From Escherichia coli O157:H7 (lineage in GTDB: Bacteria > Pseudomonadota > Gammaproteobacteria > Enterobacterales > Enterobacteriaceae), in assembly GCF_013167455.1 (NCBI RefSeq), contig NZ_CP038328.1: a stretch of 64,000 bases of DNA; one strand, given 5' to 3'. Under the pieces are notes generated by a model that saw nothing but the letters and a program-made list of their open reading frames with translations, did not search any database and had not been told where the DNA came from. Position 1 is the first letter of the stretch; every line of letters begins with the position of its first letter. The position numbers were made by a program, and so were the translations under genes. Below are positions 11,857-63,770 of this stretch, piece by piece.

Positions 11857-13413
11857 TTACCACTGCGGCGTATACGGTTTCTTCAGCCAGCGGACAAAAT
11901 CGTCCAGCGGTAACGGGCGACTAATCCAGTAGCCTTGCATGAAATTAACGCCGCGTTCGCTTAGCCATCGCGCCTGTTCCGGCGTTTCGACCCCCTCAGC
12001 AACCGTCAGCATATTGAGGCGTTTCGCCAGCGTCAGCACCGCGTCAAGTACGGGTGAAGTGATCGTTTCCGTACCGATGGCGTTGATAAATCCACGGTCA
12101 ATTTTCAGATAATCGAGCGTAAAACGCTCAAGATAGATAAGCGCGCTGTGCCCGGTGCCGAAGTCATCAATAGCAATTTCTACGCCGACCGAGTGCAGCC
12201 AGGCGAAGAGTTGTGTGGCTTCTTGCTCTTTCAGCATATCGCGCTCGGTAATTTCCAGCACAATCTGGAAATGGTGTGCGGGTAGGGAAGTGAGCAGTTT
12301 CTGGATATTTGCTTTAAAGCTTTCGCTGTGCAGATGGTCCGGCGCAATGTTAATGCCAAATTTGACGCCTACCGGCAGCACTTTTTCTAATTCTGCGGCA
12401 TCGCGGGCAATTAACTCAAACAGGTGCTGAGTCAGCGGCACAATCATCTTTTGCGATTCGGCAAAGTTAATGAAGGCATCCGGGGGAATTTCTCCCGCGA
12501 CAGGATGCCGCCAGCGTAGCAGTACTTCCAGGCCCGTTACTCGCAAAGCTTGTGTATCCACCACCGGTTGATACGCCACGTAAAATTGTTCGCGCTTGAT
12601 GGCGGTCATGATTTCTCTGCCGGGGCGCATACGTACGCTCATCAGGTAATAGCAGAGCAGGCCAACGACAGTTCCACTCATGCCGCCCAGTAAAAATGCG
12701 TACCACACATCGTTCCATGTCCAGTCATCTGCATAAAGCCGAACGGTCAGAGGAATGCCCGCAATTTTAGTTTCACGGACTGGCATGTCGGTTAATTCGT
12801 TAACGTTCATCAAACGTGAAGAAAAGGTAGATAGCGCAGTATTGCCAATAATGAGGGCGACGCCATCGTAATCTTCCTGCCGTGAGCTATAAAAGAGAGA
12901 AGGCGTCAGGTTGAGATTCAGAGCGGCAAAGACGCCGCTATTTTTCAGCAAAGGGTTGCGATACCAGATGACGATTGCGGGTTTGTTCGGCACCATCGGC
13001 GTGCCGGGTAAGATCGCCATATCGACATTTTTATTAATGTCGAGCGCAGGAATCAATTCATTGAGTGGAATGTCCATCTCACCGGTCGCAGATGAACAGA
13101 ATGTTTTTTTATCTTTCACCAGCACAAACGTTCGGACATTCATGCTAAACGCCGCGCGGGCGGTCAGTTCGGGGTTAGCTTGCTTGCATGTATCTAAGGT
13201 CAGCGGCTGGAGCCGGTCAGTAGTGGATTTCAGGTCGGCAAAATAGGTATCGAGATACTTTTGTACGTCGGTAATCAGTGTGTCGTATTTGACTTCGTGC
13301 TTATGCCAGGCCACTAAAAACTGAAGGCAGCTCACCAGTATCGCAATCATTACGCCTGCAACAATGCAGGTAAGCAGGAGCTTACGTCCAGAATTGGGAG
13401 CGCGTATGAACAT
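11857..13413 (-). CDS. rtn: EAL-domain c-di-GMP phosphodiesterase with periplasmic sensor domain (Rtn/PdeN)
   Basis: 518-aa ORF with two TM segments and C-terminal EAL domain (ELEKVLPVGVKFGINIAPDHL...). Confidence 0.88.
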   Translation of the reverse strand: MFIRAPNSGRKLLLTCIVAGVMIAILVSCLQFLVAWHKHEVKYDTLITDVQKYLDTYFADLKSTTDRLQPLTLDTCKQANPELTARAAFSMNVRTFVLVKDKKTFCSSATGEMDIPLNELIPALDINKNVDMAILPGTPMVPNKPAIVIWYRNPLLKNSGVFAALNLNLTPSLFYSSRQEDYDGVALIIGNTALSTFSSRLMNVNELTDMPVRETKIAGIPLTVRLYADDWTWNDVWYAFLLGGMSGTVVGLLCYYLMSVRMRPGREIMTAIKREQFYVAYQPVVDTQALRVTGLEVLLRWRHPVAGEIPPDAFINFAESQKMIVPLTQHLFELIARDAAELEKVLPVGVKFGINIAPDHLHSESFKANIQKLLTSLPAHHFQIVLEITERDMLKEQEATQLFAWLHSVGVEIAIDDFGTGHSALIYLERFTLDYLKIDRGFINAIGTETITSPVLDAVLTLAKRLNMLTVAEGVETPEQARWLSERGVNFMQGYWISRPLPLDDFVRWLKKPYTPQW

Positions 13414-28065: not shown

Positions 28066-28106
28066 TGTAGACCGGATAAAACGCATCAAGCGTTGCATCC
28101 GGCAAT
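28066..28106. repeat. REP-like palindromic element downstream of psuT
   Basis: accggataaaacgcatcaagcgttgcatccggc, inverted ccggat/atccgg arms. Confidence 0.55.
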
Positions 28107-31260: not shown

Positions 31261-31295
31261 GCCGGATAAGATGCGGTCAAGCGTCGAATCCGGCA
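31261..31295. repeat. REP-like palindromic element downstream of nupX
   Basis: gccggataagatgcggtcaagcgtcgaatccggca. Confidence 0.55.
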
Positions 31296-46321: not shown

Positions 46322-47332
46322 ATGAGTGCGTTAAATAAGAAAAGTTTTCTTACTTACCTGAAAGAGGGCGGTATTTACGTCGTTCTTTTAGTTTTGCTTG
46401 CGATTATTATTTTCCAGGCCCCAACATTTTTAAGTCTGTTGAACTTAAGTAATATTCTCACCCAGTCATCGGTGCGTATTATTATCGCGCTCGGTGTGGC
46501 AGGGTTAATTGTCACCCAGGGGACCGACCTTTCTGCGGGGCGTCAAGTAGGGCTGGCGGCAGTGGTGGCAGCGACATTATTGCAGTCCATGGATAACGCC
46601 AACAAAGTGTTCCCGGAAATGGCGACGATGCCGATTGCGCTGGTTATTCTGATTGTCTGTGCCATTGGTGCGGTGATCGGTTTGATCAACGGTCTGATTA
46701 TCGCTTATCTCAACGTGACGCCGTTCATTACCACGCTCGGCACGATGATCATCGTCTATGGCATCAACTCGCTTTATTACGACTTTGTCGGGGCGTCGCC
46801 AATTTCTGGTTTTGACAGTGGCTTCTCTACCTTTGCTCAGGGCTTTGTCGCGCTGGGGAGTTTCCGTCTCTCTTACATCACCTTCTACGCGTTGATTGCG
46901 GTGGCGTTCGTCTGGGTGTTGTGGAACAAAACCCGCTTCGGTAAGAACATTTTTGCCATTGGCGGTAACCCGGAAGCGGCAAAAGTATCTGGTGTCAACG
47001 TCGGCCTGAACCTGCTGATGATCTACGCGTTGTCTGGCGTGTTCTATGCCTTTGGCGGGATGTTAGAAGCCGGACGTATCGGCTCTGCCACCAACAACCT
47101 CGGCTTTATGTATGAACTGGATGCTATCGCGGCGTGCGTGGTAGGCGGTGTATCGTTCAGCGGCGGTGTGGGGACGGTGATTGGCGTGGTGACCGGGGTA
47201 ATTATTTTTACCGTCATCAACTATGGCCTGACGTACATCGGCGTAAACCCATACTGGCAGTACATCATCAAAGGGGCGATTATTATCTTCGCCGTAGCGC
47301 TGGATTCACTGAAGTACGCGCGTAAGAAGTGA
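46322..47332 (+). CDS. mglC: Galactose/methyl-galactoside ABC transporter permease
   Basis: 336-aa multi-TM ORF. Confidence 0.93.
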   Translation: MSALNKKSFLTYLKEGGIYVVLLVLLAIIIFQAPTFLSLLNLSNILTQSSVRIIIALGVAGLIVTQGTDLSAGRQVGLAAVVAATLLQSMDNANKVFPEMATMPIALVILIVCAIGAVIGLINGLIIAYLNVTPFITTLGTMIIVYGINSLYYDFVGASPISGFDSGFSTFAQGFVALGSFRLSYITFYALIAVAFVWVLWNKTRFGKNIFAIGGNPEAAKVSGVNVGLNLLMIYALSGVFYAFGGMLEAGRIGSATNNLGFMYELDAIAACVVGGVSFSGGVGTVIGVVTGVIIFTVINYGLTYIGVNPYWQYIIKGAIIIFAVALDSLKYARKK

Positions 47333-47383
47333 AATGATTGTGGTCCGCATTCGGTCATAAACGCACATAACATCATGATCTGT

Positions 47384-47565
47384 GTGGTTTTGTAGGCCGG
47401 ATAAGGCGTTCACGCCGCATCCGGCGACAGGAGCCAAATGCCGGATGCAACGCTGGCGCGTTTTATCCGGCCTGCAATGAGCTCAACATACTGATTTGTA
47501 TGGTTTTGTAGGCCGGATAAGGCGTTCAAGCCGCATCCGGCGACAGGAACCAAATGCCGGATGCG
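47384..47565. repeat. BIME-type cluster: two near-identical ~64-bp REP-containing units spaced ~117 bp apart
   Basis: tggttttgtaggccggataaggcgttca(c/a)gccgcatccggcgacagga(g/a)ccaaatgccggatgc occurs at 47384-47448 and 47501-47564. Confidence 0.75.
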
Positions 47566-47574
47566 TCTCTGGTT

Positions 47575-48810
47575 TTACAACGTTACCGGGTGTTCTTTCT
47601 CGCCTTTCTTAAACTTCACTTCCCCGAGCTCAATACAACCCACCGGGCAGACGTGACCACAAAGCAGACAACCCACACATTTCTCGGTATTACAATGCGG
47701 TGTGCGGGTTTTCTCGCTCCATTCCATCGCCTGGTGACCGCCGTCGTAACAGGAAATATAACAGCGTCCACAGCCAACACATTTATCAAGATTGATACGG
47801 GGATAGACAATATAACTGCGGTCTAAATCTTCCGCCGGGACAATATTGTTATTCGCCAGACCTACCATCTCCTGCAACGAATCAAATCCCTGATCGGCGA
47901 GATAATGCGATAACCCGCTCGCCATATCTTCTACGATGCGATAGCCGTACTGCATAATGCCGGTGGTGACCTGTAACGTTGCTGCGCCGAGCAATAAAAA
48001 CTCCGCCGCATCCTCCCAGGTTTCAATGCCGCCGATACCGCTGATTGGGAAATCGCGCAGTTCTGGATGGGTGCGCATTTGCTGAATGAAGCGCAGGGCG
48101 ATCGGTTTTACCGCTTTACCGGAATATCCGGAAATACTCGATTTTCCGTTAACGATCGGCATACCGATTTTCTGATTAAGATCGATATTGGTGATGGATT
48201 TAACGGTGTTAATCGCCGCAATGCCATCTGCGCCGCCGCGCTTCGCCGCCAGCGCCACTTCGCACATATCACCGATATTCGGCGTCATCTTCGCCAGCAT
48301 TGGCAGCGTGGAACCCCGTTTCACTGCCCGACAATATTTTTCTACCAGCTCCGGGCTTTGCCCGACATCGCTACCCATCGCATGAGAAGTCATTTGCGGA
48401 CAGGAGAAGTTACACTCGATCATATCCGCGCCAGCTTCTTGCACCAGGCGCGCCAGCTCCTCCCATTGCTGCTCATTTTCCCCCATGATCGAAGCGATCA
48501 ATACTTTGTCCGGGTAATCTTCCTTCAGCCGACGCAGGGCGGCCAGATTCTCTTCCAACGGATGTTCAGCAATCTGTTCCATATTTTTGAAGCCGATAAA
48601 ACCGGTATCTTCTTTCACCAGATGATCAAAACGCGGCGAGACTTCGTTGGCGATAAAAAAGCCGATCGTTTTAAACACCACGCCGCCCCAACCTGTGTCG
48701 TAGGCTTTGGCACACATCTCATAGCAGTTGCCTACCGGCGAAGAAGAGAGGCAGAACGGGTTGGGAAACTTCACGCCGCAAAAAGTAATCGAAAGATCTT
48801 TCGTTAACAT
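47575..48810 (-). CDS. preA: NAD-dependent dihydropyrimidine dehydrogenase subunit PreA (4Fe-4S/FMN subunit)
   Basis: 411-aa product from [19 protein letters not shown]; C-terminal ferredoxin-like Cys clusters. Confidence 0.9.
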
Positions 48811-50235: not shown

Positions 50236-52231
<1,996 letters not shown>

Positions 52232-53487: not shown

Positions 53488-53581
53488 TTAATTCGTAAAA
53501 CGTGCTACCGATCACATTAAGAATTCTCAGCATAGTTGAATTTTAGGGAGGTAACCTCGGGCGAGCGCCCCGTTCAGCACA

Positions 53582-54490
53582 CTAATTCTGCTGTAAAAAG
53601 TGCAGAAACTGACTTAAAGCATAAGAAGGCGTTTCGTTATTGCGCCAGAACACACCGACGCTACCTTTCTGTTCTATCTTTGGCAGGTTGAGTATCACCA
53701 GTTGTCCCTGGCTGGCATAACGTTGCGCCAGGCGTAATGACAAAATAGAGATCATATCGCTGCTTTGTAACAGGTTGGTACTGACGTTCATCGACGCCGA
53801 CTCAATCGTGTTTTCTGGCAGCATTACGCCGTGGTCTACCAGCGCATTATCAATACTAATGCGAATGGGGGTACCCGTCGGCCAGACGATCCAGCGCCAG
53901 TTGGCAAGATCATTCCAGCTGAGGGTGGCGTATTTCGCCAGTGGGTGCTCAGGGCGGGCGACAAAGCATACTGGCTCGGTGTACAGCACCTGATAATTCA
54001 GTGGCAGCTGCAATGCGCGACCGCCAATTCGCCCAACGACCACATCGACAGAACCGGCCAATAGATCTTGCAGCAATGGGGTCATCACCTTCTCTTCGAT
54101 ATTCAGGTGTAGAGTTGGCATCTTCGTAAGCAAATGCAAAATCGCCTGGGATACGCAGTCAGTGGCGACGGGAGAACAGCCAATTTTCAGACTGCCGACC
54201 AGTCCACCTTGTTTAAAACGGGCCAGTTCATGTTGCGATCGCTCCATGTCATTGATTAACCGTTGGGCATGTTGCAATAACAATTTGCCGCCTTCAGTCG
54301 GACGTAATCCTTTGCTGTGCCGCTCAAAAAGTGTGATTCCAATCTCATCTTCGAGTTGTGACAACCATTTCGAAAGCGCAGGTTGGGTGATATTCATCAT
54401 TCGTGCGACATGGGTTAGATTGCCCTGTTCACCCAGCGCCACCAGCATTTCAAGGTGATGTAGTTTTAATTTTTGCGCCCAGTTCGCCAT
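53582..54490 (-). CDS. mhbR: LysR-family transcriptional regulator of the gentisate cluster (MhbR-like)
   Basis: N-terminal HTH (LHHLEMLVALGEQGNLTHVARMMNITQPALSKWLSQLE); start placed at MANWAQ with GAGG RBS rather than the 16-codon longer ORF; divergent from the transporter gene. Confidence 0.8.
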   Translation of the reverse strand: MANWAQKLKLHHLEMLVALGEQGNLTHVARMMNITQPALSKWLSQLEDEIGITLFERHSKGLRPTEGGKLLLQHAQRLINDMERSQHELARFKQGGLVGSLKIGCSPVATDCVSQAILHLLTKMPTLHLNIEEKVMTPLLQDLLAGSVDVVVGRIGGRALQLPLNYQVLYTEPVCFVARPEHPLAKYATLSWNDLANWRWIVWPTGTPIRISIDNALVDHGVMLPENTIESASMNVSTNLLQSSDMISILSLRLAQRYASQGQLVILNLPKIEQKGSVGVFWRNNETPSYALSQFLHFLQQN

Positions 54491-54495
54491 TTGCC

Positions 54496-54511
54496 ATAAC
54501 CTCAAGGTTAT
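54496..54511. promoter_or_regulatory. LysR-type palindromic box in the mhbR/mhbT divergent promoter
   Basis: ataacc-tcaa-ggttat perfect inverted repeat of T-N11-A type between the divergent regulator and transporter genes. Confidence 0.45.
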
Positions 54512-54616
54512 CTCTCTGCCCGAAATGCCATTGTACATCTCATCTCTTTAATCACAATATCGCAACATATACAAAACAAAAGAAACATCTACCTTACCTG
54601 CACTGAGGCATTTACT

Positions 54617-55975
54617 ATGACTCAACGACGTGATTTACAAGCACTTATCGATGCTGCTCCGGTCGGCAAGATGCAGTGGCGCGTTATCATCTGCTGTTTT
54701 CTGGTGGTAATGCTCGATGGTTTTGACACCGCGGCTATCGGATTTATCGCCCCTGATATTCGCACTCACTGGCAACTCACCGCAGGCGATCTCGCCCCGC
54801 TTTTTGGCGCGGGTCTGCTAGGATTAACCGCAGGCGCACTGCTTTGTGGCCCGTTGTCCGATCGCTTTGGTCGCAAGCGGGTGATTGAGCTGTGCGTCTT
54901 TTTGTTTGGCGCGTTAAGCCTCGCCTCGGCTTTCTCACCGGATCTGCAAACGCTGGTCTTCCTGCGCTTTCTCACCGGCCTGGGTCTGGGCGGCGCGATG
55001 CCGAACACCATCACCATGACCTCGGAGTATCTGCCTGCCCGCCGCCGCGGCGCGCTGGTGACGCTGATGTTTTGCGGCTTTACGCTGGGTTCGGCGTTTG
55101 GCGGGATTGTCAGTGCGCAGCTGGTGCCGGTGATTGGCTGGCACGGCATTCTGGTGTTGGGGGGCGTGTTACCGCTGATGCTGTTTGTCGCACTGCTGGT
55201 AGTTCTGCCGGAATCGCCACGCTGGCAGGTGCGCCGCCAGCTACCGCAGGCGGTGATTGCGAAAACCGTCAGCGCCATCACCCGCGAGCGTTATGTCGAT
55301 ACCCACTTTTATCTCATTGAATCAGCCTCCGTTACAAAAGGCAGCATTCGTCAACTGTTTATGGGACGTCAGTTACCCATCACGTTGATGCTGTGGGTAG
55401 TGTTCTTTATGAGCCTGCTGATTATTTACCTGCTCTCAAGCTGGATGCCGACGCTACTGAACCATCGCGGCATCGACCTGCAACACGCGTCCTGGGTCAC
55501 CGCCGCGTTCCAGATTGGTGGTACGTTAGGCGCGCTGGCGCTGGGTGTGCTGATGGATAAGTTCAATCCTTTCCGCGTGCTGACGCTGAGCTATGCCATA
55601 GGCGCTATATGCATCGTGATGATTGGCTTAAGCCAGGATGGATTATGGTTGATGGCGCTGGCGATTTTCGGCACTGGCATTGGCATTAGCGGATCGCAGG
55701 TGGGGCTGAATGCGCTGACCGCAACACTTTATCCAACACAAAGTCGAGCCACGGGCGTGAGCTGGTCAAATGCTATCGGCCGCTGCGGCGCGATTGTTGG
55801 TTCGCTGTCTGGCGGCGTGATGATGGCGATGAATTTCTCTTTCGACACCCTGTTTTTCATTATCGCTGTGCCTGCGGCGATCAGTGCGGTGATGTTAACC
55901 CTGCTGATTACCGTGGTTCGCCAGTCGACCTCTGTCCCTGACTCACTGCCTCGCGCAGGCGTTGTGAACGAATAA
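54617..55975 (+). CDS. mhbT: MFS aromatic acid:H+ symporter (AAHS family), probable 3-hydroxybenzoate transporter
   Basis: 452-aa 12-TM ORF with MFS motif [11 protein letters not shown]. Confidence 0.8.
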
Positions 55976-55986
55976 GGAGCATCTCA

Positions 55987-57015
55987 ATGACTGATAACAA
56001 TCAAAATAGCCGCGAGCAATTTTATCAGCATATTTCCGGGCAAAACCTGACCCCGCTGTGGGAGTCACTGCACCATCTGGTGCCGAAAACGCCCAACGCT
56101 AACTGTGCGCCAGCGTACTGGAATTATCAGGAGATCCGCCCGCTGCTACTGGAGAGCGGCGGCCTGATTGGTGCGAAAGAGGCCGTGCGCCGCGTGCTGG
56201 TGCTGGAAAACCCGGCGCTGCGCGGGCAGTCTTCCATTACCGCGACTTTATATGCCGGTTTGCAACTGATCATGCCGGGCGAAGTGGCACCGAGTCATCG
56301 TCATAATCAGTCGGCGCTGCGTTTTATTGTTGAAGGCAAAGGGGCATTTACCGCCGTTGATGGCGAACGCACGCCAATGAATGAAGGCGATTTTATCCTG
56401 ACCCCGCAGTGGCGCTGGCACGATCACGGTAACCCTGGCGACGAACCGGTTATCTGGCTCGATGGGCTGGATCTGCCATTAGTGAATATTCTGGGCTGCG
56501 GTTTTGCCGAAGATTATCCGGAAGAGCAACAACCGGTAACGCGTAAAGAGGGAGATTATCTGCCGCGTTACGCTGCCAATATGTTGCCGCTGCGGCATCA
56601 GACGGGGAACTCCTCGCCGATCTTTAACTATCGTTATGACCGCAGCCGCGAAGTGCTGCACGATTTAACCCGACTGGGCGATGCCGACGAGTGGGATGGC
56701 TACAAAATGCGCTACGTCAACCCGGTCACCGGCGGCTATCCGATGCCGTCGATGGGCGCTTTCCTGCAACTGCTGCCGAAAGGGTTTGCCTCACGCGTTG
56801 CGCGTACCACTGACAGCACCATCTACCATGTGGTGGAAGGTAGCGGGCAGGTCATCATCGGCAATGAAACCTTCAGCTTTAGTGCAAAAGATATCTTCGT
56901 GGTGCCGACCTGGCATGGCGTGTCGTTCCAGACCACGCAAGATTCCGTTTTATTTAGTTTTTCGGACAGACCGGTACAAGAAGCCCTGGGGCTGTTCCGC
57001 GAAGCGCGTTATTAA
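55987..57015 (+). CDS. mhbD: Gentisate 1,2-dioxygenase (bicupin)
   Basis: 342-aa ORF with cupin His motifs ([13 protein letters not shown]...WRWHDHGN). Confidence 0.85.
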
Positions 57016-57029
57016 TTTAGGAGAGAAAA

Positions 57030-57731
57030 ATGACTCAATACGTATTCGAACCGCAAGCGCCCGTTACCGTACCGGTTGTTGGCAGTGATGAACAATTCCC
57101 CGTGCGCCGCGTTTACTGCGTCGGACGTAACTATGCCGCTCACGCCCGCGAAATGGGCTTTGATCCGGATCGTGAACCGCCATTCTTCTTCTGCAAACCG
57201 GCGGATGCCGTTGTTCCGGTTGCCGCTGGTGAAACGCTGGCGCTGCCGTATCCGGCACAGACCGATAACTACCATTACGAAATTGAACTGGTGGTGGCGA
57301 TTGGTAAAAAAGGCAGCGATATCCCGCTGGAACACGCCCATGAATATGTCTGGGGTTATGCCACGGGTCTTGATATGACTCGGCGTGACCGTCAAATGGA
57401 AATGCGCCAGATGGGCCGCCCGTGGGAAATCGGTAAAGCGTTTGATCTCTCAGCGCCCATCGCGCCGCTGCACAAAGCCCGCGATATCGGCGGTATTGAT
57501 AATGCGCCAATCTGGTTACAGGTTAACGGCGAAGATCATCAGCGCAGCGATATTCGCCATCTCATCTGGTCGGTGAATGAAACCATCTGCTATCTGTCAG
57601 GCTTCTTTGAGCTGCAACCGGGCGATCTGATCTTCACCGGTACGCCGGAAGGGGTTGGCCCGGTAGTGAAAGGTGATGTGATCACAGGCAACGTCGAGGG
57701 CTTAACGCCTATCGCGGTGAAGATTGTCTGA
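57030..57731 (+). CDS. mhbH: Fumarylpyruvate hydrolase (FAH family)
   Basis: 233-aa ORF of the fumarylacetoacetate hydrolase family; 14 bp after the dioxygenase gene. Confidence 0.8.
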
Positions 57732-57736
57732 GGTGC

Positions 57737-58384
57737 ATGATGAAGCTGTACAGTTTTTTTAATAGTTCAGCGTCGTACCGGGTACGCATTGCGCTGGCGC
57801 TGAAAGGCATTAATTACCAGACCGAAGGGGTGAATATCCGTATTGGTCAGCAAAATGAACTGGCCTATCGGCGGATGAATCCGGTCGGGCTGGTGCCGAC
57901 GCTGCTGACTGACGAGGGCGAATCACTCGGACAATCGCTGGCGATTATTGACTGGCTGGAGAGGCACTACCCGCAAGTTCCGCTGGTGCCGCAGGAAGAG
58001 CCGGCCCGCAACAAGGTGCTGGAAATTGTCTATGCCATCGCTTGTGATATTCATCCATTGAATAACTTGCGCGTGCTGCGCTACCTGACCGAAGAACTGA
58101 ACGTCAGTGAAGAAGAAAAAAAACGTTGGTATGCGCACTGGATCCAGCAAGGGTTAAGCGCGGTGGAACAACTGTTGCGCCAGAACCAGTCGGGGCAATT
58201 TTGTGTGGGCGAGACGCCGACGCTGGCAGATTGCTGCCTTGTCCCGCAGTGGGCGAACGCGCTACGCATGAACTGCGATTTGAGCGGGTATCCACGCTGC
58301 AAAGCGGTGTACGACGCCTGCACACAGCTGCCAGCGTTCATTGCCGCAGCGCCAGAAAATCAACAAGATAAAATTTCAGCCTGA
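57737..58384 (+). CDS. mhbI: Maleylpyruvate isomerase (GST zeta / maleylacetoacetate isomerase family)
   Basis: 215-aa ORF with GST N-terminal thioredoxin-like fold (MKLYSFFNSSASYRVRIAL). Confidence 0.8.
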   Translation: MMKLYSFFNSSASYRVRIALALKGINYQTEGVNIRIGQQNELAYRRMNPVGLVPTLLTDEGESLGQSLAIIDWLERHYPQVPLVPQEEPARNKVLEIVYAIACDIHPLNNLRVLRYLTEELNVSEEEKKRWYAHWIQQGLSAVEQLLRQNQSGQFCVGETPTLADCCLVPQWANALRMNCDLSGYPRCKAVYDACTQLPAFIAAAPENQQDKISA

Positions 58385-58398
58385 CCAGGAGAACTATA

Positions 58399-59592
58399 AT
58401 GACGAAAGTGACACGCGCAGTAATTGTGGGAGGCGGGATCGGCGGTGCGGCAACTGCGCTGTCACTGGCCCGCCTGGGGATCAAAGTGGTGCTGCTGGAA
58501 AAGGCGCATGAGATCGGTGAGATTGGCGCGGGCATCCAGTTGGGGCCAAATGCGTTTTCGGCGCTGGACAGCCTCGGCGTCGGCGAAGTTGCCCGCCAGC
58601 GCGCGGTGTTTACCGATCACATTACCATGATGGATGCGGTGAACGCCGAAGAAGTGGTGTGCATTGAAACCGGGCAGGCCTTTCGTGACCATTTCGGCGG
58701 CCCTTACGCGGTGATCCACCGGGTTGATATTCACGCCTCGGTGTGGGAAGCGGTACTGACGCATCCGGACGTGGAATATCACACCTCCACCAACGTCGTG
58801 GATATTCGCGAGACGGAAGACGATGTCACCGTGTTTGACGATCGCGGCAATAGCTGGACCGGCGATATTCTGATTGGCTGTGACGGCGTGAAGTCAGTGG
58901 TGCGCCAGAGCTTATTGGGCGATGCGCCGCGTGTCACCGGACATGTTGTCTACCGTGCGGTTATCGATCGTGCCGATATGCCGGAAGATTTGCGCATTAA
59001 CGCACCGGTACTGTGGGCGGGGCCGCATTGTCACTTGGTGCATTACCCTTTGCGCGGCGGCAAGCAGTATAACCTGGTGGTAACATTCCACAGCCGCCAG
59101 CAGGAAGAGTGGGGCGTGAAGGATGGTAGTAAAGAGGAAGTGCTCTCTTACTTTGAAGGGATTCACCCCCGTCCGCGCCAGATGTTGGATAAACCGACTT
59201 CATGGCGACGCTGGTCAACCGCTGACCGTGAACCGGTGGCGAAGTGGGGAACGAAGCGCATAACGCTTGTGGGCGATTCGGCCCATCCGGTGGCGCAATA
59301 TATGGCGCAGGGAGCCTGTATGGCGCTGGAAGATGCAGTAACGCTGGGTAAGGCGCTGGCGCAGTGTGAGGGTGATGCGGCGCAAGCCTTTGCGCTGTAT
59401 GAGTCGGTACGAATTCCGCGCACCGCGCGCATCGTCTGGTCGACCCGTGAAATGGGGCGGGTTTACCACGCCGCAGGGGTAGAACGCCAGGTACGTAATC
59501 TGCTGTGGAAAGGGAAATCGCAGGCAGAATTTTATCGCGGCATGGAGTGGTTGTACGGCTGGAAAGAAGATAACTGTTTGCAACCACGCTAA
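58399..59592 (+). CDS. mhbM: FAD-dependent 3-hydroxybenzoate 6-hydroxylase (flavoprotein monooxygenase)
   Basis: 397-aa ORF with GxGxxG FAD motif (VIVGGGIGGAATA) and salicylate hydroxylase-like core. Confidence 0.8.
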   Translation: MTKVTRAVIVGGGIGGAATALSLARLGIKVVLLEKAHEIGEIGAGIQLGPNAFSALDSLGVGEVARQRAVFTDHITMMDAVNAEEVVCIETGQAFRDHFGGPYAVIHRVDIHASVWEAVLTHPDVEYHTSTNVVDIRETEDDVTVFDDRGNSWTGDILIGCDGVKSVVRQSLLGDAPRVTGHVVYRAVIDRADMPEDLRINAPVLWAGPHCHLVHYPLRGGKQYNLVVTFHSRQQEEWGVKDGSKEEVLSYFEGIHPRPRQMLDKPTSWRRWSTADREPVAKWGTKRITLVGDSAHPVAQYMAQGACMALEDAVTLGKALAQCEGDAAQAFALYESVRIPRTARIVWSTREMGRVYHAAGVERQVRNLLWKGKSQAEFYRGMEWLYGWKEDNCLQPR

Positions 59593-63684: not shown

Positions 63685-63770
63685 TTGGTAGGCATGATAA
63701 GACGCACAAGCGCCGCATCAGGCATGGTGAACCGGATGTCGGATGCGGCGCGCACGCCTTATCCAGGGCA
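63685..63770. repeat. Pair of REP elements (BIME) between yohF and yohD
   Basis: ggcatgataagacgcacaagcgccgcatcaggcatg and ccggatgtcggatgcggcgcgcacgccttatccagg in inverted orientation. Confidence 0.65.

Follow-up and report, generated by a model that had tools for sequence, protein, structure and literature searches.

The mglC-preA repeat of Escherichia coli O157:H7 as a copy of the known BIME-2 array REP156

The tandem repeat lying between mglC and preA in Escherichia coli O157:H7 is almost certainly the O157:H7 copy of REP156, a BIME-2 array of repetitive extragenic palindromes (REPs). It consists of three intact palindromic units of alternating orientation (Y, Z2 and Y), together with a decayed terminal Z2 unit. 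We studied it within a 64-kb stretch of chromosome (64,000 nucleotides; hereafter the window). An earlier note on this DNA had described a REP/BIME cluster between mglC and preA, and that description was borne out by the consensus match, the BIME-2 architecture, the RefSeq genes and the REP156 annotation. The array was already known, its K-12 orthologue having been catalogued, and is not a new repeat system. With high confidence, we conclude that the best overall explanation is a REP156 BIME-2 array in the 3' region common to two converging operons, mglBAC and preTA. The value of this check is negative: the regular 116-bp periodicity is that of a catalogued BIME-2, rather than of a CRISPR-like or novel system.

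Positions 47200-47750 of the window are 100% identical in several O157:H7 chromosomes. In this DNA, mglC (+) and preA (-) converge on a gap of 242 bp that is filled by the repeat. The mglC stop codon is TGA (47330-47332) and that of preA is TAA (47575-47577, - strand; PreA C-terminus ...EHPVTL*). The BIME is wholly extragenic, between the two stop codons, and sits in the 3' untranslated region of both genes. Its features, with the evidence for each in brackets, are as follows.

46322-47332, + strand: mglC coding sequence, galactose ABC transporter permease (ORF list; RefSeq annotation of 100%-identical O157:H7 DNA)
47333-47391, no strand: leader, from the mglC stop to the first palindromic unit (alignment; start of the direct repeat)
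47369-47572, + strand: two 88-nt direct-repeat copies, full extent (repeat search)
47392-47425, - strand (strand of the classical consensus): Y unit 1 (34/34 consensus match; fold)
47426-47439, no strand: head-to-head linker 1, S-type, 14 nt, GACAGGAGCCAAAT (sequence)
47440-47475, + strand: complete Z2-type unit (length and layout as in the REP325 Z2 units; fold)
47476-47507, no strand: tail-to-tail linker, 32 nt, AATGAGCTCAACATACTGATTTGTATGGTTTT (sequence)
47508-47541, - strand: Y unit 2 (33/34 consensus match; fold of -11.1 kcal/mol as DNA)
47542-47555, no strand: head-to-head linker 2, 14 nt, GACAGGAACCAAAT (sequence; within repeat copy 2)
47556-47578, + strand: truncated Z2 unit (alignment with the SCPM-O-B-8794, E69 and E. 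whittamii forms)
47575-48810, - strand: preA coding sequence, NAD-dependent dihydropyrimidine dehydrogenase subunit (ORF list; RefSeq annotation)

The direct repeat occupies 47369-47456 and 47485-47572, its copies sharing 90% identity at a start-to-start period of 116 bp. The array as a whole represents ~1.75 copies of this period (Y, S linker, Z2, tail linker). Each repeated unit takes in ~23 nt of non-REP linker upstream of its Y unit, while the two copies are separated by 28 nt that form the latter half of a REP. The earlier note had proposed two units of ~64 bp recurring every ~117 bp, with a third, partial REP between them. Two copies with REP-containing cores are indeed present, although the repeated unit measures 88 nt; the spacing is regular, but the repeat search places it at 116 bp; and a REP does lie between the copies, albeit a complete, self-folding Z2 unit (47440-47475). 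The truly partial unit was thus misplaced, as it ends copy 2 (47556-47578), where it failed to fold on its own.

The repeat is real and far beyond chance. The window contains 5 copies of the REP tail motif TTATCCGGCCTRC compared to 0.20 expected, a count reached by 0 of 100 shuffles, and 3 of the 5 fall inside 47392-47520. Likewise, the REP head motif GCCGGATGCG, allowing at most 1 mismatch, is found 22 times compared to 8.2 expected, which no shuffle matched; 4 of these copies are inside 47416-47565. Tandem Repeats Finder reported nothing on 47000-48000 because the array has fewer than two full periods.

Seeded local alignment to the E. coli REP consensus GCCGGATGCGGCGTGAACGCCTTATCCGGCCTAC, as quoted in PMC12306157, matched every position of the first Y unit (34/34) and all but one position of the second (33/34), which settles the REP identity by the alignment that the earlier note had named as its test. 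The defining features of a palindromic unit (PU) are a hairpin and a GTAG/CTAC tetranucleotide (PMC3333891). Intact units of the array are imperfect palindromes flanked by GTAG/CTAC, with a conserved bubble (7 bp, 2x2 bubble, 4-5 bp, loop). On the + strand, Y unit 1 begins with GTAG (47392-47395), followed by its palindrome (47396-47425), and folds into 7 bp, a 2x2 mismatch bubble and 4 bp (-13.1 kcal/mol as DNA; z = -4.2); the GTAG of Y unit 2 is at 47508-47511. The Z2 unit, the first 10 nt of which are the end of repeat copy 1, comprises a 32-nt palindrome (47440-47471) and a CTGC tail (47472-47475), and folds alone at -12.2 kcal/mol as DNA. In the truncated Z2 unit, the head GCCGGATGCG (47556-47565) is followed by a 13-nt internal deletion and a TTAC tail, equivalent to CTAC, that overlaps the preA stop. 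Across 11 Z2 copies from the mglC-preA locus, other Escherichia and REP325, 97% of stem cells are paired, and two stem positions display compensatory change (G-C to T-A and G-C to A-T). In the MFE fold of the full-length RNA, neighbouring inverted units pair together and the local hairpins are not formed, so the structure in vivo is uncertain.

Head-to-head linker 1 is the counterpart of the 13-nt linker in REP325 and of the linker left unpaired in the Rfam naRNA4 model. The 32-nt tail-to-tail linker, which by its length may be of the named 'l' class, is locus-specific at high stringency: a 61-nt query over it matched a single place per genome across 1,822 E. coli genomes (megablast), with up to three linker copies in some genome. 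The last ~23 nt of the leader (47369-47391) are a copy of this linker. Positions 47343-47360, also in the leader, could conceivably be a remnant of a decayed first Z2 unit; when the five-unit allele of the record SCPM-O-B-8794 was aligned, a 25-nt gap fell in the leader region.

BIME-2 elements are described as inverse Y and Z2 units with a short S linker and flanking s/l/r motifs, repeated in tandem and varying in copy number between strains (PMC3333891). The order of units in the array is Y(-), Z2(+), Y(-), truncated Z2(+); its two head-to-head linkers are of 14 nt, compared to 13 nt in REP325; it is tandem, at a 116-bp period, and its alleles differ between strains. As expected of REPs, a 551-bp query covering the locus matches a median of 33 sites in each E. 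coli genome. Positions 47395-47472 (+) also match Rfam RF02564 (naRNA4) at 85.8 bits, relative to a gathering score of 59.5, as a two-hairpin Y-linker-Z2 RNA in the sense of the mglC mRNA; the second, truncated unit reached only 38 bits, below the gathering score. This above-threshold match, together with the report that REP325 naRNA4 binds HU and restores nucleoid condensation (PMC4550694), could be taken to indicate that the Y-S-Z2 unit is an independent naRNA4-type sRNA gene, the product of which binds HU and helps to condense the nucleoid. We consider this very unlikely. RF02564 was modelled on a BIME-2 unit from REP325, and both REP325 and mglC-preA have a Y-linker-Z2 that is co-linear with its consensus, so the match simply restates the BIME-2 identity; it speaks to membership in sequence and structure, and is not evidence of HU binding or a nucleoid role. 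Moreover, 46800-48100 contains no promoter-like site, indicating that any RNA would be part of the mglC 3' UTR. Finally, a 2026 preprint, whose authors include Adhya, senior author of the 2015 naRNA4 paper, finds REP325/naRNA4 to be without measurable chromosome compaction, and REP-REP contacts not to be HU-dependent.

The sole point in favor of a CRISPR-like or other spacer-acquiring array is the regular 116-bp spacing of a palindromic repeat, and we give this reading next to no weight. Such an array needs at least 3 identical repeats and unique spacers, as a rule with cas genes close by, whereas the mglC-preA locus has two copies only, separated by REP sequence rather than by a unique spacer. 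In addition, the repeats match the genome-wide REP consensus, and the array sequence is conserved across E. coli lineages, changing by whole units and acquiring no new spacers. No cas genes are annotated in the 64-kb window. The earlier note had cautioned that the periodicity might be mistaken for CRISPR, and it was right to do so: two copies, a 'spacer' that is itself REP and the lack of cas genes rule such an array out.

The identity of the array as REP156 comes from K-12. Its orthologue is named REP156, 'Convergent, preA/mglC', at 2236535-2236684 in the supplement of bioRxiv 10.64898/2026.03.23.713779, and this interval maps onto window 47391-47540, which corresponds to the three intact units. 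The name is taken from that preprint supplement and not from the RefSeq K-12 record, in which no repeat_region features are annotated at the mglC-preA gap.

Alleles were surveyed by comparing the 551-bp query (window 47200-47750) with 5,426 complete E. coli genomes. The long form, defined by coverage of at least 80% of the query, was present in 2,875 of them (~53%); nearly all remaining genomes cover 66% of the query, with the 70-bp remnant representing ~47%. Comparison of copy number among E. coli genomes, which the earlier note had suggested, thus revealed that the size of the array differs, with gaps of 242, 126 and 70 bp. The 242-bp allele is that of O157, K-12 and Nissle. The 126-bp allele is rare (a few genomes) and has lost exactly one 116-bp period; its leader is that of unit 1, its Y loop and S linker are those of unit 2, a mixture that points to a crossover inside the identical stretch 47388-47411. 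In the 70-bp allele, a perfect 12-bp hairpin, made up of the core palindrome GCCGGATGC-gct-GCATCCGGC and flanking TTG/CAA pairs, precedes the S linker and the truncated Z2, and the allele looks like a collapse of the Z2-linker-Y inverted pair. This hairpin exists in two loop-inverted forms, GCCGGATGC-GCT-GCATCCGGC and GCCGGATGC-AGC-GCATCCGGC (short allele, retrieved-locus positions 434-503, versus strain TR01; ~50 genomes), the pattern expected from hairpin or cruciform template switching. Junction queries identified 1,822 genomes for the inter-unit linker, 2,526 for the leader and 2,248 for the short allele; since megablast misses diverged alleles, these counts are lower bounds that do not sum to 5,426, and the proportions rest mainly on the 551-bp coverage classes.

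In the O157:H7 strain TR01 (NZ_CP033605.1), the mglC-preA spacer is chimeric (retrieved-locus positions 1379-1621): 123 nt identical to the O157 BIME are flanked on each side by the same 51-nt stretch of the short allele, in direct orientation, and this stretch includes the last 10 nt of mglC. This allele is either a private rearrangement or an assembly artefact, and was set aside because it is present in 1 of the 5,426 genomes.

Taken together, these findings demonstrate that unit number at mglC-preA changes when whole periods are gained or lost and when internal deletions occur. The locus represents a compact series of natural alleles, all lying between one and the same pair of convergent genes, extending from the five-unit form through the 242-bp (three intact units) and 126-bp (one intact unit) alleles to the 70-bp, single-hairpin remnant. 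This series could be a test bed for the debated role of REPs at mRNA 3' ends, whether as terminator, stabiliser or gyrase site.

The cross-species scan covered one genome per species. Each of six records labelled Escherichia, including E. albertii, E. whittamii and two named only as Escherichia sp., had its own arrangement, and the mglC-preA gap in the other Escherichia-labelled records ranged from 112 to 280 bp. The record labelled E. coli SCPM-O-B-8794 contains five units, Z2-l-Y-S-Z2-l-Y-S-Z2, at the same 116-bp period; its terminal Z2 is full-length, and the preA stop TAG is read from the CTAC tail on the opposite strand. In the E. coli E69 record and in E. whittamii, the terminal Z2 is truncated but the CTAC is kept, supplying the TAG stop of preA. 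The end of preA reads ...TTG TAG in these three genomes, and the TTAC of the window gives TAA. This TTAC, together with the 13-nt deletion relative to the full Z2 of SCPM-O-B-8794, indicates that the partial REP is a decayed Z2 abutting the preA stop. Since the tail of the terminal Z2 coincides with that stop, the array lies directly against the end of the preA reading frame and may have helped to shape it.

A stronger form of this idea holds that the array is what is left, after decay, of a BIME-2 with five units, the terminal Z2 of which reaches into the preA reading frame and matters there; we view it as improbable. The distance from the preA stop to the hairpin is 0 nt in the five-unit allele, while in the window it is 33 nt to the first intact unit and 6 nt to an alternative 13-bp hairpin. 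If the coincidence of tail and stop does matter, REP insertion and decay would set the distance from the preA stop to the first hairpin, and this distance could tune preA translation termination or trans-translation, as well as the mglC and preA 3' ends, lineage by lineage.

Outside Escherichia, the mglC gene of Klebsiella spallanzanii and of Pseudocitrobacter has a hairpin and T-run after it, of canonical terminator shape by eye, and preA is not its neighbour. Past this terminator-like hairpin, Pseudocitrobacter vendiensis carries a Y unit and, ~35 nt from it, a short Z-type unit that points the opposite way. This BIME-1-like pair suggests that the mglC 3' region attracted REPs independently in another genus.

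Returning to the REP156 array of the window, transcription from either side would yield stable REP hairpins at the mRNA 3' end, where they might impede 3'-to-5' exonucleases and so act as a stabiliser. Because no intrinsic terminator is present, we propose that the array may also serve as a partial, Rho-assisted transcription stop for both convergent transcripts. A search of both strands of the gap failed to identify an intrinsic terminator, the one consensus match, inside Z2, comparing with 1.4 expected; the reading of the array as an intrinsic (Rho-independent) terminator was rejected, as none of the units is followed by a T-run, whichever strand is read. For Rho, a peak of in-vitro binding in the preA sense is listed at K-12 2236464-2236532 (bioRxiv 10.64898/2026.03.23.713779 supplement), equivalent to window 47543-47611, and ends 3 nt from REP156. 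REP325 both protects upstream mRNA as a stabiliser and terminates transcription in a partly Rho-dependent manner, and the presence of REPs between convergent genes correlates with raised expression of the pair. Against such a role, terminal REPs show no general effect on half-life genome-wide, and short REP fragments are not Rho-dependent. As to whether a 3'-end hairpin or terminator role matters physiologically at mglC-preA, we judge the chances to be roughly even.

The Y-S-Z2 DNA could, in addition, be a site that DNA gyrase prefers to bind and cleave. BIME-2 elements are enriched in gyrase cleavage sites, mainly within their Y units and independently of transcription (PMC6379681); the text of the Topo-Seq supplement has no mglC, preA or yeiA entry. 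The array may have arisen, and may be resized, via TnpA-REP/RAYT, via recombination or slippage between the 88-nt repeats, or both. TnpA-REP cleaves and recombines BIMEs in vitro and is a proposed source of copy-number change (PMC3333891), and the exact one-period deletion is equally explained by recombination between the 88-nt repeats.

For the functional part of this reading, a serious alternative remains, namely that the array is purely selfish or neutral repeat DNA in a permissive gap, its hairpins and protein binding being by-products. Although we find this somewhat unlikely, several observations are consistent with it. Presence and size of the array vary freely, and the finding that ~47% of complete E. 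coli genomes have the 70-bp remnant only indicates that the full array is dispensable. Likewise, each sampled Escherichia species has a different arrangement, terminal units are decaying by internal deletion, and terminal REPs lack the genome-wide half-life effect referred to above. In contrast, every Escherichia allele, the 70-bp one included, has kept one or more strong hairpins (-16 kcal/mol as DNA) and lacks an intrinsic terminator, whereas the non-Escherichia relatives have one. That the Rho-binding peak abuts REP156 also argues against neutrality, as do the compensatory changes in the Z2 stems, albeit gene conversion among REPs could yield these as well.

The window contains five further REP loci, at 1219-1252, 28067-28103, 31261-31294, 51310-51339 and 63688-63764, which are single units plus one Z2/Y pair. 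According to the O157 annotation, four of the five are between convergent ends (yejK/rplY, yeiL/psuT, yeiI/nupX and yohD/yohF) and one is between the tandem genes cdd and sanA. The yohD/yohF pair corresponds to REP154 of K-12, which overlaps an in-vitro Rho-binding peak (bioRxiv 10.64898/2026.03.23.713779 supplement). Other features of the window include an ordinary Rfam L25-Gammaproteobacteria ribosomal protein leader (1644-1669, - strand, 46.9 bits), directly upstream of rplY (1344-1628, - strand), and pdeN (11863-13412, - strand), encoding a cyclic di-GMP phosphodiesterase, which is a frameshifted pseudogene in the annotation of the identical O157:H7 record. Between dusC and yohJ, the O157 annotation places a 3-hydroxybenzoate/gentisate catabolic cluster (~53581-59591) with mhbT, gtdA, maiA, a fumarylacetoacetate hydrolase family gene, 3-hydroxybenzoate 6-monooxygenase and a LysR regulator; this cluster is probably a strain-variable island.

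Among known systems, BIME-1 and RIB/RIP likewise place inverted REP pairs in 3' regions. BIME-1 is a single Y and Z1 pair with a long conserved L linker bearing an IHF site, and is not tandem (PMC3333891). A BIME-1 reading of the mglC-preA array was rejected, as its Y units are partnered by the long Z2 type across head-to-head linkers of only 14 nt, and the unit recurs in tandem. REP325/naRNA4 (yjdM-yjdN, K-12), the experimentally studied model for a dual terminator and stabiliser role, shares the two-hairpin Y-linker-Z2 unit, and its Z2 units are co-linear with the mglC-preA Z2. The two nevertheless differ in geometry and setting: REP325 has 12 units at a 100-bp period with a 17-nt tail linker and lies between tandem genes, whereas the mglC-preA array has a 116-bp period, a 32-nt tail linker and convergent genes. 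Their Z2 stems differ as well (GCCGGAT at mglC-preA compared to GCCTGAT in REP325). With the BIME-2 family as a whole (Gilson/Bachellier/Hofnung; Ton-Hoang et al. 2012, PMC3333891), the array shares the alternation of Y and Z2, the S linker, the longer tail-to-tail linker, tandem repetition, an extragenic position and a strain-variable unit number, although at 1.75 periods it is small for the class and its terminal unit is decayed. The closest counterpart is REP156 of K-12 MG1655, which is orthologous, with the same 242-bp gap and its parts in the same order (Y-S-Z2-linker-Y-S-truncated Z2). K-12-type genomes align with the 551-bp query at 98.4% identity, and the two forms are distinguished by few point differences, including the Z2 tail (CTAC in K-12, CTGC in O157) and one S-linker base. 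The catalogued REP156 interval takes in the three intact units only, leaving out the truncated fourth.
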